Source: a virus (Duplodnaviria > Heunggongvirae > Uroviricota > Caudoviricetes). From it: 35,293 nucleotides of DNA. The position numbers and the translations under genes are program-made. Each line of letters starts with the position of its first letter. Position 1 is the stretch's first letter. This document shows positions 10,816 to 29,819 of this stretch, piece by piece. The notes below the pieces were generated by a model, which saw nothing but the letters and a program-made list of their open reading frames with translations, made no database searches and was not told the DNA's origin. The stretch lies in the IMG/VR virus record IMGVR_UViG_2778261341_000005; one strand, 5' to 3'.

Positions 10816-11164
10816 AGTTCACCCTGGTGTTTATGCGTCCAAAATCCTGTGTCTCTGCTGTCACATGCAGCCTGCCCGGTGCCTCTTCGTTAATGAACAC
10901 CGTCCCCGGAACCAGCCGTTCATCATCCTCAACCAGGAGGATAAGCCGGGTAATGATGTCGCTGCGCAGCGTCGGGCTGCGTTCGCCGATAAGCAGGGCG
11001 GCGATCCCGCTTTCGATAATGCTGTGCACCACGTCCTGGCCGATGCTGACCCGGTTATCACATCGCTGTGGCTCGTTTCCGCTGTTCAGCGTAAAACTGC
11101 CGTCAGTGATAAGCAGGTCGATGTAAAGCGATGGCGTGTTCATCCCGCGTAAAGCTCCGTCCAT
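10793..11164 (-). CDS. baseplate wedge protein (gp25 / gpW-like), tentative
   Basis: 123 aa; N-terminal RGMN and IGERSP (GER motif) reminiscent of gp25-like proteins; overlaps tape-measure 3' end and gpJ-like 5' end. Confidence 0.4.
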   Translation of the reverse strand: MDGALRGMNTPSLYIDLLITDGSFTLNSGNEPQRCDNRVSIGQDVVHSIIESGIAALLIGERSPTLRSDIITRLILLVEDDERLVPGTVFINEEAPGRLHVTAETQDFGRINTRVNYERETGR

Positions 11165-13326
11165 TCATCCAGTTGCCCCGGCGTCATCGGGTTCTGCGTG
11201 TTGATTGTCAGATTGCCGAACGTCCGGCTGTTGTCGATACGGGTTGAGGTGTCCGTGCGTATCTGGTTGCGTATGCCTCCGGGTGGCAGCTCTGCGCTGA
11301 TGCGGTTGCCTGCCAGTGCCGGGACGGCGGTTTCTGCAATCTGCGGAGGTACGGTGCTGCCCGTTGCGCCCCGCGTCATGGTGTTCACCTGCTCCGTGGG
11401 CTTCATGTCGATACTGATACCGGGGATTTTGTTCAGCTTTTCCGCAAGCCAGTTCCACGTCCGGTTAAACGAGTTTTTAATGACGTTCCATAAGTCCCCG
11501 AAAACGTTACCGATGATCCCCGCCATTTTCCGGAAGGATTCGACCGGGGCGGTCGGGTCAAATGCAGCCACCACGTCCTGCCACCCTCTGATGACGATGG
11601 TGAAGATGTCGATCAGGTCTCTTATTGCGCCGATCACCATTTCCAGCGGGGTAGAAATCAGGCTGACTGCGGCGGCCACCAGGCGTCCGCATGTTTCCCC
11701 GGCACGGGTGACGCTGTTCATCTGTCCCGTGGTCAGCTGTACCGGTGTAAACAGATCGGAGAAGGCACCGAACAGGGTTTTTATGCCCTGCCATACCGGG
11801 GCCAGCGCCCGTGCAATGTCGCCGAACGCGGCAGTCACCGGGCTCATGGCGTCCAGTGCGCCGGTAAAACCATCAATAAAGCCGCGAATAAAGGCTTTGA
11901 TGGGCTGCCAGAACTTAATGGCTACCACCACCAGAGCGGCGATGGCGGCAACAACCAGGAGGACCGGGGCGCCCATGGTCAGAAACGACACGCCCGCCAG
12001 ACGCGCGGCAAGACTGGTGGCAATGATGACGCTGCGTACTTTTGTGAGTGCGAGCGTGTACAGACCCCAGGCTGCCCTGGCGCCCTTTATGATGGCCTTA
12101 TGGCCTTCCATGATGAAGCTGAACACACCCAGCACGATGTTCGTGACCGCACCGGCTGCGCCCAGCGCCAGCATGGTCAGCGTGATGTAACCCAGCCAGC
12201 GGGCGATGTTCGGGAACATGTTCAGCCAGCGCACGAACGTCGCGCCGATATCGGCAAAACGGCCAGCCAGTGGTGCGAGAATGGGGTAGAGGGCGTTACC
12301 GATGGCGGCCCGGATGTTGTAGAAGGAGGCCACAAGGCGGTCCCACGGGTCGGTCATGGCTTCCGCCATTTCCGTGGCACGCTTCATGCCGTCATTACGC
12401 CCCAGCGCTGATATGCTCCGGTTAAGCATTTCCTGCTGTCCCCAGAGTTTTTTAATCACGTCCGCACCACTGCCGAAGGCGTCATCCAGCGCCTGTTGTG
12501 CCGCCACGTTACCCTCAATGTTCCTGCCGAACCTCGCCTGCAGACGGTCGAGGATGTCACCCATGGGTAAAATCTTCCCGGTGGCATCGACGAAACTCAT
12601 CCCCATTTTTTGTGCGGCAGCGGGGGCACTGCGCAGGAACTCCTCATAGATGCCTGATGCCTCGGTACCCATGGTCCGTGACAGGGTGCCCAGTATGGCA
12701 AACTGCTCTGCCATGCTGACGCCAAAATCCGCGCCAGCGTTTTTGGTGCCCTCAATAAGCTCCTGCATGGTGCTCATTTCCACGCCGAACTGCTGAACCA
12801 TCCACGCGGTTTTACCAGCCAGATCTTCAGCAAAACCCACGGCACCCATGGCAGAAAACTCACTGCGGAAACGGGCACCCATGGCGGCAAGGTAAGTACT
12901 CGCCTCTTCACTGCTGACGCGGGCAGCCACGGCCAGGGTACTGGTTGCTGCCGTCACACGGGGTAAATCCCCGTCGCTCAGCCCGTCCAGTGCGCCGCGA
13001 ATATGCCATGCGGAACGGATGATCTCCGTGGAAGACTGACCGAATGCGGTCCCCAGTTTCATGGCCTGCGTGGTGAGGGCGGTCAGCGCCTGCGCTCCGA
13101 CGCCTTTGGCCTCAAGCTCGCTCAGCGCCTTCTGCATCTCCCACGCCGGATCCATTGCGGCGCGGATACCTTCAGCCACACCCCACAGTCCGGCCACACC
13201 CACACCGATACGCGCGAACGCGCCCTGCGAGCGTTCGGCGAATCCCGTCACGGATTCCTGAACCTGCCGCAGCGGGCGGGTAAGCTGGTCTGTCAGATTG
13301 ATAATGAAATCCAGCTGGCTGGCCAT
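11140..13326 (-). CDS. tail tape measure protein
   Basis: 728 aa, Ala/Gly-rich with internal hydrophobic segments; preceded by a chaperone gene with a frameshift site. Confidence 0.85.
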   Translation of the reverse strand: MASQLDFIINLTDQLTRPLRQVQESVTGFAERSQGAFARIGVGVAGLWGVAEGIRAAMDPAWEMQKALSELEAKGVGAQALTALTTQAMKLGTAFGQSSTEIIRSAWHIRGALDGLSDGDLPRVTAATSTLAVAARVSSEEASTYLAAMGARFRSEFSAMGAVGFAEDLAGKTAWMVQQFGVEMSTMQELIEGTKNAGADFGVSMAEQFAILGTLSRTMGTEASGIYEEFLRSAPAAAQKMGMSFVDATGKILPMGDILDRLQARFGRNIEGNVAAQQALDDAFGSGADVIKKLWGQQEMLNRSISALGRNDGMKRATEMAEAMTDPWDRLVASFYNIRAAIGNALYPILAPLAGRFADIGATFVRWLNMFPNIARWLGYITLTMLALGAAGAVTNIVLGVFSFIMEGHKAIIKGARAAWGLYTLALTKVRSVIIATSLAARLAGVSFLTMGAPVLLVVAAIAALVVVAIKFWQPIKAFIRGFIDGFTGALDAMSPVTAAFGDIARALAPVWQGIKTLFGAFSDLFTPVQLTTGQMNSVTRAGETCGRLVAAAVSLISTPLEMVIGAIRDLIDIFTIVIRGWQDVVAAFDPTAPVESFRKMAGIIGNVFGDLWNVIKNSFNRTWNWLAEKLNKIPGISIDMKPTEQVNTMTRGATGSTVPPQIAETAVPALAGNRISAELPPGGIRNQIRTDTSTRIDNSRTFGNLTINTQNPMTPGQLDEWTELYAG

Positions 13327-13327
13327 G

Positions 13328-13791
13328 TCACCTTCCGTTAAATGCGATCGCTATACCTTCAGCGGTCTTGTTGGCGCGGGTACGGGCAAAATATTCATCC
13401 AGCCAGATGGCCCGGGCGATGCTCTCTTCGTCGTCCGGCTCTCCGGGGAGGTAGTGACGCCGCAATGCCAGATACTGCTCAAGGGGATTGCGGCGGATGC
13501 TTTCGACCCGCGCGGTCAGTTTTTTAACTCAATCTCCAGTTTCGGGGAGTAAACCTCGTTAATCTTCTCGACGATCTGCATCTCACAGCCCGGATAACGC
13601 GCAATCAGGTCAGCCAGTGCGTCGCGGCTGGCAGGCGTCACGATGCGGTTAAGATAGGTGCTCATCGGCGCCACCTTGTTGGTCATCGTGATTTCGTTGA
13701 TGAGGTTGTTAAATGCCGTTTTGTTCGGTTCAAAGCTCAGGGTTACGCCCGCAACGGACAGGATGATGGTGCCGGTGTTCTTCGTGGTCAT
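13328..13791 (-). CDS. tail assembly chaperone, predicted -1 frameshift product (E+E'-like, ~154 aa)
   Basis: After a -1 slip at A_AAA_AAC (plus coordinates 13519-13525) the reading frame stays open for 63 codons and stops at TGA 13328-13330, overlapping the tape-measure ATG (13324-13326). Confidence 0.5.
13516..13791 (-). CDS. tail assembly chaperone (gpE-like, 91 aa)
   Basis: 91-aa ORF immediately upstream of the tape measure; ends ...GAG TTA AAA AAC TGA with slippery heptamer A AAA AAC. Confidence 0.6.
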   Translation of the reverse strand: MTTKNTGTIILSVAGVTLSFEPNKTAFNNLINEITMTNKVAPMSTYLNRIVTPASRDALADLIARYPGCEMQIVEKINEVYSPKLEIELKN

Positions 13792-14024
13792 TGCAGTTTC
13801 TCCGTGTTTCGTATGGTTTCCACCAGGCTGTTATGCCTGGCGGCACATTCGGTGTAGCGGCTCGTGAGGGTTCGCAGTGCCGCATCAAAATCAGCGCCCG
13901 TCGGGCCTGCCAGTCTCGGCAGTGTCTTCGGGCATTCCGTCAGCTGGTTTTCCTGCCAGGGTACGCTCAGCGGCTTCAGCACGGGCGTTGAACAGCCGGA
14001 CGTAATCATCAGTAGCGCACACAT
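13788..14024 (-). CDS. o-spanin (Rz1-like lipoprotein), start approximate
   Basis: ORF in an alternative frame overlapping the 3' part of the Rz-like gene; signal peptide with lipobox (LLMITSGC). Confidence 0.5.
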   Translation of the reverse strand: MCALLMITSGCSTPVLKPLSVPWQENQLTECPKTLPRLAGPTGADFDAALRTLTSRYTECAARHNSLVETIRNTEKLQ

Positions 14025-14277
14025 TGCGGAATACCGGGCGGACGGTTTCCGTGTGAATAACGCGTTCAGTGTGAATTTCATTGCCCTTTAACGCCTCCAG
14101 CCGTTTTTCCAGTATGCGGGCGGACTGCTGCCCGGCTTCTGTCACCGCCCGTCGCGTGGCTTCCATGGCTTCCTGTTCGGCAAGCACCACCCTGGCGTCA
14201 TGCCAGTCATGGGCCAGCCAGCCCGCCCACATGGCGGCAAAGAGGATCACCAGGCAGCCCGCCAGCTGTTTCATCAT
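13891..14277 (-). CDS. i-spanin (Rz-like)
   Basis: 128 aa, N-terminal TM segment then charged/helical periplasmic domain; start overlaps the endolysin stop; embedded Rz1-like frame. Confidence 0.65.
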   Translation of the reverse strand: MMKQLAGCLVILFAAMWAGWLAHDWHDARVVLAEQEAMEATRRAVTEAGQQSARILEKRLEALKGNEIHTERVIHTETVRPVFRNVCATDDYVRLFNARAEAAERTLAGKPADGMPEDTAETGRPDGR

Positions 14278-14612
14278 TTCACCCCGTTGTGCTCAAGGCT
14301 GAAATGATTGCCGTCTGCCCGGCTGAAGCGTCCGCCCCATGTGCCGCCGATGGATTCCCAGTATTCCCCCAGCGGCCTGTAGGCGTCGGTGTCGGTCTGG
14401 TATTCGCCGTTAATAAACAGGTTGAAGTCCACCGCGAGGCGCAGGGTGTGAAGGCTGTTGCGGATGCCTTTTCCGGTTTTCGCATTCAGTGCTGCCTGCT
14501 CCGGCGTGCGGTATGCCTCACCGAAGGTCAGGCGATAGCCGTGCTCCTGCGCCCAGTGAATAAGGTCGGCAATCATGACGGCAAACAGCTGTTGTTTTTC
14601 GCTCAGATTCAT
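14274..14612 (-). CDS. endolysin, peptidase M15 family (L-alanyl-D-glutamate peptidase type)
   Basis: 112 aa with HTLRLAVD ... DGNHFSLEH (His-x6-Asp ... His zinc-ligand pattern of M15 endolysins). Confidence 0.75.
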   Translation of the reverse strand: MNLSEKQQLFAVMIADLIHWAQEHGYRLTFGEAYRTPEQAALNAKTGKGIRNSLHTLRLAVDFNLFINGEYQTDTDAYRPLGEYWESIGGTWGGRFSRADGNHFSLEHNGVK

Positions 14613-14662
14613 GGGGTATCTCCTGTGCGTTATACAGGTTCAGGGAAGGTGAAATGTAAGGC

Positions 14663-14968
14663 TTATGGGTCATTTCTGCGTTCCTTATGCTTCAGGTAGC
14701 GGTCTGCCAGACGGCAAAAGCATTCTTCAATAAAGGCGCTGCCCATAATGCCCAGCGCGCACGCCAGACCGACCACAACCAGTTCCGGCATGTCCGGAAA
14801 TTTAAACAGCGGAATGGCGGCAACCGGCGCCACGGCAGAGCCCATAATCATTCGCCCGATAAGCAGACGGGCTGTGATGCGATCGCGGCTCACCATGAGA
14901 CGCCCCAGCCCGATGGCGGCACCGATGATAATCAGTTTTGCCAGGAGTGAAGTCTGACCGTCCGGCAT
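14663..14968 (-). CDS. holin (putative, 3 TM segments)
   Basis: 101 aa with three hydrophobic helices and a charged C-terminus; directly upstream of the endolysin. Confidence 0.6.
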   Translation of the reverse strand: MPDGQTSLLAKLIIIGAAIGLGRLMVSRDRITARLLIGRMIMGSAVAPVAAIPLFKFPDMPELVVVGLACALGIMGSAFIEECFCRLADRYLKHKERRNDP

Positions 14969-14972
14969 GGCA

Positions 14973-15434
14973 TCACCCCTTCAGATCGCGGGTGTCACGG
15001 GCTGACAGGTAGGGCACGCCGTCAATGCTGATAAAGTCCGGGCTTGTGACCATGAACTTGATTTTTTTCGTGGTCTTTCCGGCTTCGCCTGCGCTGATGT
15101 TCACCACGTCCGACAACATGGGGACGCAGCCGAACACCTCGATTTTTTCCTCCTCGCTGCCGTTGTTGGCATAAAAGAGAAAATCCTTTTCAGGAATGGC
15201 GCGCCACGACCCCGCAGAGCGGGCCACGGCACCAAACTTTTTAAAGTTCTGTGCGTCGACTTCCACCTCCACATCGGCAGAAACAGAACCACGGGTGTAG
15301 CCGTTCGGCACGCCGCGCGTCTGTGCCACGGCGCTGTTGTCGGTGATGGTGACGGTGGCGCTTTCCACGTGGATCATGATCCCGTCGTAGTTGATATCAA
15401 ACGCGCCGCCGCTGATACGTTCATTTCCGGCCAT
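14973..15434 (-). CDS. tail tube protein (FII-like); start placed at internal ATG 15432-15434
   Basis: About 153 aa following the sheath gene; GGAG 8 nt upstream of the ATG; track ORF extends to 15464. Confidence 0.5.
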   Translation of the reverse strand: MAGNERISGGAFDINYDGIMIHVESATVTITDNSAVAQTRGVPNGYTRGSVSADVEVEVDAQNFKKFGAVARSAGSWRAIPEKDFLFYANNGSEEEKIEVFGCVPMLSDVVNISAGEAGKTTKKIKFMVTSPDFISIDGVPYLSARDTRDLKG

Positions 15435-15435
15435 G

Positions 15436-16581
15436 TCAGATCTCCAGTGCTGTGTCGAGTTCAATACTTACGCCAATGGCTTTTGCGCTCTCGTAGGGGC
15501 GTACCACAATGTAAATCTGCACGTGTGTACTGCTGGTCCAGACGATGGTGATATCCCCGTCCTGTGGCGGTTTAACCTCGCCGGGGAACGGTACGCCGTT
15601 AATCTCCGTGGCGAGCGCCATTTCACGCAGCGTGCGGCTGAAATATGTCTGGCTGGCGGCAATGCTGCCCGGTGTGCTGTTGAGCGCGCGATCCGCAAGG
15701 CGGGCAATGGCGCGCAGACGTACACGGCGGGAGACCTTATCCACCACGCGCACGTTTTCGATGACCTGGTAATCGCCACCCTCCACATCAAGGGTGCGTC
15801 CGTCTGACCAGTAGAGCCCGTCGAAATCGTGATACCACATGGGCACGCTGAAGCGTTTGCCTTCCAGCGAGCGCAGCGTGGCCAGCTCAAGGGGCTGTTT
15901 CTTGCCGTCCTGCGGGATCTCATCGTTACCCATCGCCACCAGGGCACCGGTTGCCACACGTGCCGGACTGTCCGCAACGGTGACGGAAGGATTACAGAGA
16001 CGGCCCGCCAGTACGCCGGGCTCATTTCCCCATAAGCGGGGAACCACCATCACGCCAGGTGCTGCCACGCCGTCCTGTATGGCACTGATGCGGGTGACGT
16101 ATGCCGCCCATGCCTCATCCTTGCCCGGTCCGGCCACGCACAGCATGAACCAGACAAAACGGCCATAAGCGGACTGAAGCAGGGCGCGGGTTTCGGTGGC
16201 GCGGTTAACGGCATCTTTGGCCGTGATGTCAATGGCAATCACCACGCCCTCGGCAGAAGCAATGGTCTGCGCTTTTTTCACCGCGTCCACCCATGCGGCG
16301 TTAGCGTCGCCGCCCTCCGGTGCCGGGGGTTTGGGTTCAGACAGAACGTGAACATAGGCAAACCAGTTCTGGCCACCGTTGGCGATTGCGGCGGTAAGCG
16401 TGGATTTAAGCAGGCTTTCATCCGGTCCCAGCACGTCGTCCAGGTCGGTCTCAGGGGAGACGGAAAGGGTGTTACCTGTGTTCTTTTTGCCATAGCCCAC
16501 AAAAAGCAGCGTGCGCTCCACTTCACGGGTGGCACCGTTGAAACGGTTCTGATGGCTTACGGTTACATTCGGCCAGCTCAC
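15436..16581 (-). CDS. tail sheath protein (FI-like)
   Basis: 381 aa, position and size as P2 FI upstream of the tube gene; no motif recalled with certainty. Confidence 0.55.
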   Translation of the reverse strand: MSWPNVTVSHQNRFNGATREVERTLLFVGYGKKNTGNTLSVSPETDLDDVLGPDESLLKSTLTAAIANGGQNWFAYVHVLSEPKPPAPEGGDANAAWVDAVKKAQTIASAEGVVIAIDITAKDAVNRATETRALLQSAYGRFVWFMLCVAGPGKDEAWAAYVTRISAIQDGVAAPGVMVVPRLWGNEPGVLAGRLCNPSVTVADSPARVATGALVAMGNDEIPQDGKKQPLELATLRSLEGKRFSVPMWYHDFDGLYWSDGRTLDVEGGDYQVIENVRVVDKVSRRVRLRAIARLADRALNSTPGSIAASQTYFSRTLREMALATEINGVPFPGEVKPPQDGDITIVWTSSTHVQIYIVVRPYESAKAIGVSIELDTALEI

Positions 16582-28497: not shown

Positions 28498-28901
28498 TCC
28501 CCGGCAGTCGCCGCCTGAAACGCCGCGCGGTACAGCACGAGAAGGCGCTGGTATTCACCGATAAAGTCTTCTGCGGTGTATATGCCTTTCACGGCCACGC
28601 TGTGGTTTGTCATTTCCAGAACAAGCGTCATCTCTGACGACGACCAGCTGATGGCGGTGCTGTCGGTTCCGTTGATGTGAAATAAACCAAAACCATCACC
28701 ATCACCTTTCACGTCCACGCGGTAACGGTCGTCAACGGTGAAGGAGAAATCCCCGTATGTGGTGACGCGTCTGGCGGCCCGTTTACAGGCGCGGCGGTAA
28801 TAGTCGTGCCAGTCGTTCAGGCGGGAAGCCAGCCGGGGATCCACTGCCCACATCCAGTTAAAAAAATCCTGAATATCTGAAAGTCCCTTAACGCTCTTCA
28901 T
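28485..28901 (-). CDS. hypothetical early protein (138 aa)
   Basis: Overlaps the start of A by 13 nt; no motif. Confidence 0.45.
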   Translation of the reverse strand: MKSVKGLSDIQDFFNWMWAVDPRLASRLNDWHDYYRRACKRAARRVTTYGDFSFTVDDRYRVDVKGDGDGFGLFHINGTDSTAISWSSSEMTLVLEMTNHSVAVKGIYTAEDFIGEYQRLLVLYRAAFQAATAGECDA

Positions 28902-28969
28902 GAGAACCTCCGGTAACAGACGTGCGGAAGCCTCCCGCGCACGGGTGCGGGATGGCTTCAGGATGTTGT

Positions 28970-29197
28970 TTAGTGGTGGTGTTGCTGGTTGATGAGGCTT
29001 TGCAGTTCTGCCATATCTTCGGCGAGATAGCTGAAGACAGCAGCGCAGTAACGGTTTGATAGCGCGTGCGTGCGCTCATGCAGCATGTTGATATGCATGA
29101 TTTGCGCGACGCGTGATGCGCGCCAGAGTCTGCGGTTGATTTCAGTGCGGATGTGAAGACGCTCAGCGCGGGCGCGCTGTTGCCTGCGGTTTGCCAT
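28970..29197 (-). CDS. hypothetical early protein (75 aa, basic)
   Basis: Preferred over the overlapping 206-aa ORF 28888..29508, whose product is low-complexity S/T/R-rich. Confidence 0.4.
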   Translation of the reverse strand: MANRRQQRARAERLHIRTEINRRLWRASRVAQIMHINMLHERTHALSNRYCAAVFSYLAEDMAELQSLINQQHHH

Positions 29198-29376
29198 GGT
29201 GTTTGGCCTCTTGTAGTAAGTTCTGAAAACTCACCATCCAGAGCTGCGAAACAGTGGGTGGCGAGACGTACGAGGTTCGCAGTACCGGCTACAAGAGATC
29301 CCGGCCCGACCGAAGTCGGCCCCGTACGCCCCGCCATAATTCTGACGCGAAAAAGACGTGGCGATACAGTACGCAC

Positions 29377-29397
29377 AAAAAAACCGCTGGCGCGGTT
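29377..29397 (-). terminator. intrinsic terminator inside the early region (putative)
   Basis: Plus strand aaaaaaa + accgctggcgcggt: read on the minus strand a GC hairpin followed by T7. Confidence 0.4.
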
Positions 29398-29519
29398 GTG
29401 CGCTCTTGTAGTCGGCAGGCTGCGAAACCCGGCACCCGTTTTATGAGGTGCAGCGGGAATGTAACCTGACTGATTGCGGCATGGCAAGCGGTTTTTTTGT
29501 GTGTGCATGTTCTGGTTTC

Positions 29520-29819
29520 TTACTGGTTCAGAAAAAAATCAAAAACCTTGTCAATGCGTTGCAGTAGCTCTTGCTGTATTGCTTCCGGCGTTTCCGGTTC
29601 ACCTGGCGCCTCCAACGTCGCGCAGAAATCAGCGATTTCATGATGGAGCGCCAGGCGAATGGCAGGAGCCGTGGTTCTGGCGTGCTCCAGCTCATCCAGC
29701 AGTGCCAGCACAGCAGACGGCGAGAGCATTGCGCGAAATGCCAGTAATTTTTGAGGCGTTGCCATTCGTTGCAGGGCAAATGCCAGTTCGCGTAGCTTCT
29801 GGTGGTTGATGGTGCTCAT
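29520..29819 (-). CDS. hypothetical early protein (99 aa), paralogue of 30108..30359
   Basis: Shares ADFCATLEAPGEPETPEAIQQELLQRIDKVFDF with DDFTATLSGPGAPVTPGEIHRDLKRRIENAIDY of the neighbouring gene. Confidence 0.45.
   Translation of the reverse strand: MSTINHQKLRELAFALQRMATPQKLLAFRAMLSPSAVLALLDELEHARTTAPAIRLALHHEIADFCATLEAPGEPETPEAIQQELLQRIDKVFDFFLNQ

Follow-up and report, generated by a model that had tools for sequence, protein, structure and literature searches.

Does the tail assembly chaperone gene of this prophage yield one protein or two? A chaperone frameshift is an expected feature of long-tailed phages, among which G-T frameshifting is widely conserved; in lambda, the two products G and GT occur at a molar ratio of about 30:1. 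The earlier note had proposed a programmed -1 ribosomal frameshift at this locus, by which a 91-aa chaperone would be extended up to the tape-measure gene. We analysed the locus in the window, i.e. in the whole stretch of 35,293 nucleotides, and in its relatives. The proposal is supported by comparative signatures, namely the position of the gene, an invariant heptamer and a conserved -1 open reading frame (ORF) without a conserved start codon. We consider it very probable that a ribosomal -1 shift gives a fusion of the chaperone with a DUF6890 domain. The shift, its efficiency and the roles of both domains are what we infer here from the comparison of sequences and from known systems.

The chaperone locus and its genomic context

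The window is an E. coli prophage of the P2 family (Peduoviridae). In a close E. coli prophage, which is 96% identical along 94% of a 24-kb query, the element is flanked by serS and dmsA and encodes a portal, terminase, scaffold, capsid, Ogr, Cox, integrase and replication endonuclease of the P2 type. The tail and lysis block, in the order sheath, tube (14973..15464 in the window), holin, endolysin, spanins, chaperone and tape measure, resembles those of three genera of Peduoviridae, Irrigatiovirus (Salmonella phage SI7), Bielevirus (Aeromonas phage phiO18P) and Evevirus (ESSI2_ev239). In identical prophages, PGAP names the chaperone 'putative phage tail assembly chaperone'. The features of the locus are as follows, in window coordinates.

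13791..13516, minus strand: tail assembly chaperone ORF, the short 0-frame product (91 aa plus TGA; from the ORF list and its translation)
13525..13519, minus strand: slippery heptamer A_AAA_AAC (A6C motif), in X_XXY_YYZ phase, with which the chaperone ORF ends before its stop
13518..13516, minus strand: 0-frame stop TGA, directly 3' of the heptamer, a possible pause element
13519..13328, minus strand: -1 extension, 63 sense codons plus TGA (13330..13328), translated as LTARVESIRR...AIAFNGR
13465..13334, minus strand: part of the extension matching DUF6890 and phrog_7050 (extension residues 19-62)
13465..13328, minus strand: separate 45-aa 'DUF6890 family protein' of PGAP, starting at TTG 13465
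13326..11140, minus strand: tail tape measure gene, 728 aa, with its ATG at 13326..13324 (PhageMin_Tail)

The minus-strand sequence bears out most of what had been described from the letters alone. The 91-aa ORF does end with GAG TTA AAA AAC TGA, the heptamer stands in the claimed phase, and the -1 frame holds exactly the 63 sense codons announced, up to its TGA. This frame begins with CTG ACC GCG CGG, the CTG being at 13519..13517, and is closed only 3 codons upstream of the heptamer. The full extension translates as LTARVESIRRNPLEQYLALRRHYLPGEPDDEESIARAIWLDEYFARTRANKTAEGIAIAFNGR, and the predicted fusion product has 154 aa (...EIELKN-LTARVES...NGR). One detail was wrong: the -1 TGA was said to overlap the tape-measure ATG, but the junction reads TGAcATG and the two codons are 1 nt apart. 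The long product, expected to end exactly at the tape-measure start, is indeed adjacent to it, but with this spacer and without overlap.

There are 73 in-phase X_XXY_YYZ heptamers in the window ORFs of at least 80 aa. Only the chaperone site both lies 0 codons before the stop and opens a -1 ORF that reaches the start of the next gene. The larger -1 ORFs that we examined at other heptamers derive from ORFs nested in, or overlapping, other frames. Elsewhere in the window, TTTTTTT occurs in phase 3 codons before the end of a 99-aa ORF (29819..29520, minus strand). This heptamer, at 29538, is followed by a 206-aa -1 ORF (region 28888-29819, minus strand) that is rich in Pro, Arg, Ser and Thr and overlaps a 75-aa ORF. 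Given this composition and this overlap, the ORF is probably spurious and the pairing coincidental, and we rejected it as a second frameshift.

The neighbouring genes provide some additional observations. A 97-aa ORF (13788-14081, minus strand) has a lipobox-like LLMITSGC, matches phrog_2425 and, weakly, the Rz-like spanin phrog_456, and overlaps in another frame the 3' end of the Rz-like i-spanin gene (13891-14277, minus strand). It looks like an overlapped o-spanin of the Rz1 type. Its TGA overlaps the chaperone ATG (ATGA, 13791-13788), and PGAP does not list it in closely related E. coli prophages. The slot between the holin and the M15 endolysin holds a 753-bp DNA methyltransferase gene in two E. 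coli prophage loci (L001:1537-2289 and L083:14613-15365) and a methyltransferase in phiO18P, but only about 50 nt in the window (14612-14663), from which it appears to be a variable cargo site. In related E. coli, three tandem Hok/Gef toxin genes lie between serS and the tail-fibre end of the prophage (L083:1290-2628). Finally, the otherwise near-identical prophage of E. coli O22:H8 strain 154 has a sheath gene (DUF2586) annotated as frameshifted, i.e. as a pseudogene (L001:1-774), so that this copy is probably defective.

Conservation of the heptamer and of the -1 frame

Both parts of the predicted fusion have strong matches in family databases. The chaperone matches the Pfam family Phage_TAC_10 (PF10963; E = 9.2e-31, 106.3 bits for a cut-off of 25.7, model positions 2-82 of 82) and phrog_1214 (E = 3e-31). 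The -1 translation matches DUF6890 (PF21830; E = 3.8e-21, 75.0 bits for a cut-off of 23.6, model positions 1-44 of 44) and phrog_7050 (E = 3.9e-25). Pfam membership was judged by the gathering threshold, which both proteins exceed across the full model. The tape-measure ORF matches PhageMin_Tail in Pfam and the tape measure family phrog_28 (E = 9e-69). Tail assembly chaperones with solved structures include HK97 gp13 (2OB9), YqbN (3KLU) and Rbstp2171 (3FGX), and we found no sequence relative with a solved structure. The AlphaFold model of the window chaperone is modest (mean pLDDT 66.9), and the best PDB fold match of this model, 3FGX, is not significant (probability 0.96, TM 0.58 normalised by target length, E = 0.19). 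Fold searches gave 0 matches at E ≤ 0.001.

We compared 83 loci, i.e. the window, 40 IMG/VR contigs, 37 species genomes, an identical E. coli prophage locus (L001) and 4 phage loci; the phages in the set are SI7, phiO18P, ESSI2_ev239 and P05B. The loci come from Enterobacterales, Aeromonas, Morganella, Xenorhabdus, Photorhabdus and Gallibacterium, and chaperone identity ranges from 42 to 100%. AAAAAAC makes up the last 7 bases of the chaperone ORF in 83/83 loci. It is immediately followed by a stop codon in all of them (TGA in 45, TAA in 28 and TAG in 10), and the -1 ORF is 60-64 codons long throughout. In every locus inspected, this ORF ends a few bases from the tape-measure start or overlaps it (ATGA), the true overlap having been seen in a sister clade of the window's lineage.

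The heptamer is conserved beyond what its amino acids impose. Among 70 distinct sequences, its three wobble positions never vary, and the nine codons before it have wobble sites with 2-4 alleles each (e.g. AAA 30 and AAG 12 for a Lys, TAC 45 and TAT 18 for a Tyr). The codon before AAA is GTA (Val) in 51 sequences, ATA (Ile) in 18 and TTA (Leu) in 1, i.e. its third base is always A. That the amino acid changes while the heptamer bases stay fixed points to selection acting on the nucleotides and not on the protein.

To place the window in the wider family, we scanned 1.84 billion cluster representatives with the fusion protein using HMMER, which gave 72 matches. Seventy of these representatives match the chaperone part alone or the extension alone, and none of the 72 is a convincing clean in-frame fusion of chaperone and DUF6890. 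Two candidates that cross the junction were rejected: P0094, apparently a frame-error gene call, and P0081, a marginal case that is apparently a fragment. We then examined the DNA of three distant Phage_TAC_10 proteins (29-35% identity). Their genes have A_AAA_AAG or A_AAA_AAA at the homologous V/A-K-K position, a 0-frame stop 7-16 codons past the heptamer, and a DUF6890-like -1 ORF of 62-63 codons that ends at the tape-measure start. The other Phage_TAC_10 loci, L084-L087, are like the window in having a homologous chaperone and extension and the same slip position, but differ from it by these stronger heptamers and by the stop lying 7-16 codons downstream. On these comparisons, the putative slip position is conserved across the family, within which the window's subfamily combines a weak heptamer with an adjacent stop. 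We also observed a tandem duplication of the chaperone domain within a single ORF in two distant members of the family, P0100 and P0113 (182 and 211 aa); in P0113 (L087:1501-2136), the second copy is followed by an A_AAA_AAG site and a DUF6890-like -1 ORF.

The two frames might also be joined at the level of transcription, if RNA polymerase slipped on the A6 run and added one A. The junction would then read ...ELKK-LTARV... instead of ...ELKN-LTARV.... Poly-A runs are known slippage-prone sequences, and all members have a run of at least six A's (seven in one distant member), such that conservation of the run cannot alone separate both mechanisms. However, six A's are short for productive slippage by bacterial RNA polymerase, and an invariant C caps the run at six in 83/83 loci, always in X_XXY_YYZ phase. 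Furthermore, distant relatives carry A_AAA_AAG, which is a classical ribosomal site of the dnaX type, the shift at the analogous position of P2 is entered in its record as translational, and the lambda G-T shift is described as ribosomal frameshifting. We therefore regard transcriptional slippage as quite unlikely, and retain the ribosomal shift as the preferred reading.

The -1 frame has the signature of a coding sequence. In 30 distinct 63-codon extensions, it is open in 30/30, and both other frames hold stops in 30/30. Its dN/dS is 0.13, against values above 1.6 in the other two frames. The variable columns at its codon positions 1, 2 and 3 number 23, 16 and 57 of 63. The first 18 codons of the extension, which lie upstream of the Pfam domain and of the TTG chosen by PGAP, have the same pattern as the remainder (8, 5 and 17 of 18 columns). 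These substitution patterns indicate purifying selection on the -1 frame, starting at its first codon.

This bears on the possibility that there are two separate genes and that the heptamer is incidental. A DUF6890 peptide of 45-63 aa would then be made by initiation, or by termination-reinitiation, at an internal TTG, GTG or CTG. Annotations are consistent with this: PGAP calls the 45-aa protein from TTG 13465, which has a weak GAG upstream, and SI7 gp15 is annotated from a GTG four codons past the site. However, no start position is conserved among 22 representatives. The TTG at codon 19 is the commonest candidate, in 9/22, and it is a Leu codon found elsewhere as CTG, TTA or CTC. The GTG of SI7 gp15, at codon 5, occurs in 5/22 and is GTC in the window, and in 5/22 representatives the first ~37 codons of the extension contain neither ATG nor GTG nor TTG. 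Database entries of DUF6890 accordingly begin at five different positions and are 45, 48, 51, 57, 59 or 63 aa long. In these data, the extension has no conserved start codon of its own. Two separate genes also leave unexplained the nucleotide-level invariance of the heptamer, and purifying selection acts on the 18 codons before the annotated start just as on the others. We consider two separate genes very unlikely. The last alternative is chance, i.e. a heptamer and an open -1 frame that coincide in a GC-rich intergenic gap where nothing is translated; frames of ~60 open codons are not rare in DNA of 55% GC and in-phase heptamers are many in the window, but the strong Pfam and PHROG matches of the -1 translation, the dN/dS of 0.13 and an arrangement kept in 83/83 loci from several bacterial orders effectively refute it, and we give it almost no credence.

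The proposed frameshift signal and its possible stimulators

If ribosomes shift at this site, is the heptamer assisted by other elements? The earlier note had pointed to a possible stimulatory structure downstream. Chaperone frameshifts of this class do not require such a structure. None is conserved in the window's lineage, but the sister clade does carry one. Two structures can be drawn in the window.

13518..13504, minus strand: 5-bp hairpin UGACC(GCGCG)GGUCG, from the MFE fold, starting right after the heptamer
13495..13458, minus strand: perfect 9-bp stem CGCCGCAAU/AUUGCGGCG, 23 nt downstream of the heptamer

The 5-bp hairpin is not conserved in relatives and is probably not a stimulator. 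The 9-bp stem is lineage-specific, being absent from SI7-like and other clades, and is too distant for a classical stimulator. The fold downstream of the window heptamer has a z-score of -0.93, and the folding energy of segments starting 1-9 nt past the heptamer is unexceptional (6th to 90th percentile of same-strand segments). We rejected a family-wide stimulatory structure, as RNAalifold on the 22 representatives gave 4 pairs and -1.19 kcal/mol. A search of Rfam gave no match at E ≤ 1. Upstream of the site, GGAG (8 nt before the heptamer) might act as a Shine-Dalgarno-like stimulator; it is present in only 3/70 distinct sequences and was rejected as a conserved element. We found no promoter or terminator on the coding strand of the gap.

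The sister clade, which is Evevirus-like, has a perfect 8-bp hairpin (CGRGUYCR-N15-YGGRCUCG) exactly 8 nt past the A6C heptamer. Its members are Escherichia phage ESSI2_ev239 (L044:1715-1765), L052-L056 and L066-L073. Compensatory A-U/G-C and G-U changes occur in the helix, which resembles a classical frameshift stimulator. The counterpart of this helix in the window is degenerate (6/8 pairs), and by this comparison the window's lineage has lost the hairpin or never had it. Two further loci, L035 and L042, have a different hairpin (-15.9 kcal/mol) with the same 5' start as that of the sister clade.

The heptamer itself is a poor frameshift site. In E. coli reporters, A_AAA_AAC gives 0.163% frameshifting without stimulator, 0.189% with the stimulators of IS911 and 0.739% with the pseudoknot of IS3, and re-pairing from AAC to AAA in the A site is poorly tolerated by bacterial ribosomes. 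Because this site is weak in E. coli (~0.16-0.7%), the adjacent stop may belong to the signal. Moreover, the stop is always adjacent here and not adjacent in the relatives with stronger heptamers, which suggests that slow termination may assist a slip in the P site (and E site). A stop that is decoded slowly in the A site would leave the tRNA on AAC in the P site (and the one in the E site) enough time to re-pair in the -1 frame. A stimulatory role of the 0-frame stop is thus possible. The stop-assisted slip and the classical tandem slip would yield the identical protein, ...ELKN-LTARV....

We tentatively propose a joint reading, which is possible but still doubtful: the signal would consist of the weak A6C heptamer and an obligatory adjacent stop, acting by a post-translocation P-site/E-site slip, and DUF6890 would be the 'T-like' tube-recruiting domain of contractile-tailed phages of the phiO18P/SI7 type. 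It is suggested by the stop of varying identity in 83/83 loci, by the lack of a conserved structure in the window's clade, and by the position of the stop, 7-16 codons away, in the relatives with A6G or A7.

Known systems, gene model and implications

We compared the locus with three known systems. The first is E/E+E' of phage P2, whose record (NC_001895) marks a -1 frameshift in the tail assembly chaperone gene that joins E to E', reportedly described by Christie and colleagues in 2002. The likeness is in the arrangement. Both phages are Peduoviridae, and the head, replication and lysogeny genes of the window's prophage are of the P2 type. Both have a 91-aa short product directly upstream of the tape-measure gene, a homopolymeric in-phase heptamer near its 3' end, and a -1 extension (~50-60 residues in P2, where E' overlaps T by 8 nt) that reaches the start of the tape-measure gene. 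The details differ. The heptamer of P2 is T_TTT_TTG and the 0-frame stop follows 6 codons later, whereas the window has A_AAA_AAC with an adjacent stop. In P2, E comes directly after the tube gene FII, whereas in the window the lysis cassette (holin, endolysin, spanins) lies between tube and chaperone. The proteins also belong to different families: E is Phage_TAC_7 (PF10109) and E' is Phage_P2_GpE (PF06528), against Phage_TAC_10 and DUF6890 in the window. The window chaperone and extension gave no match to Phage_TAC_7 or Phage_P2_GpE in Pfam at E ≤ 1, and BLASTP of the window fusion against P2 E gave no alignment. Hence, the 'E/E'-like' label of the earlier note is right for the arrangement but not for the proteins: as judged by this absence of sequence similarity, the system of the window is an analogue of E/E', not a homologue.

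The second system, lambda G/GT, has a similar arrangement: a -1 shift of low frequency, close to the 3' end of the chaperone ORF, yields two products with a common N-terminus. The lambda model assigns binding of the tape measure to the G part and recruitment of the tube protein to the T part. Lambda is a siphovirus, and Pfam returned no match of the window proteins to lambda-type families. The slip site of lambda is G_GGA_AAG, which is more efficient than A_AAA_AAC. The third system, insA/insAB' of IS1, has the identical AAAAAAC near the end of its upstream ORF and the same host, E. coli. Its -1 shift on A6C is proven in E. coli, with low efficiency and without an established stimulator. The product is an unrelated transposase, and the shift limits transposition instead of setting a chaperone ratio.

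Under the preferred reading, most ribosomes would stop at TGA 13518..13516 and release the 91-aa Phage_TAC_10 chaperone. A small share would slip back one base on A_AAA_AAC and then read CTG ACC GCG..., adding 63 residues with the DUF6890 domain. The resulting 154-aa fusion would stop 1 nt short of the tape-measure ATG. Judging from lambda G/GT and P2 E/E+E', the N-terminal part common to both products may coat the tape-measure protein and the rarer C-terminal extension may recruit the tail tube protein, and neither product would stay in the virion.

Existing records describe the locus otherwise. The records of the SI7, phiO18P and ESSI2_ev239 type, and the E. coli prophages annotated by PGAP, give the extension a CDS of its own under the name 'DUF6890 family protein' or 'hypothetical protein'. 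None of the RefSeq/GenBank records searched has a ribosomal-slippage annotation at the chaperone site. Our literature search returned no paper mentioning DUF6890 or PF10963, and the papers naming phiO18P together with 'frameshift' concern other subjects than this site. The comparisons presented above indicate that Phage_TAC_10 chaperones have DUF6890 as their C-terminal extension, encoded in the -1 frame.

The correct gene model would then be a joined CDS of 154 aa, and the current start codons are arbitrary. The main value of the finding is this correction of annotation; views of phage tail assembly and of recoding are unchanged. The locus also offers a natural and deeply conserved case of a weak A6C heptamer with an adjacent stop in gamma-proteobacteria. 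If the stop-assisted reading is true, the chaperone ratio would be set by the activity of release factors, not by mRNA structure. DUF6890 itself would gain a likely role and a gene model across many prophages of Enterobacterales, Aeromonas, Morganella, Xenorhabdus and Pasteurellaceae.
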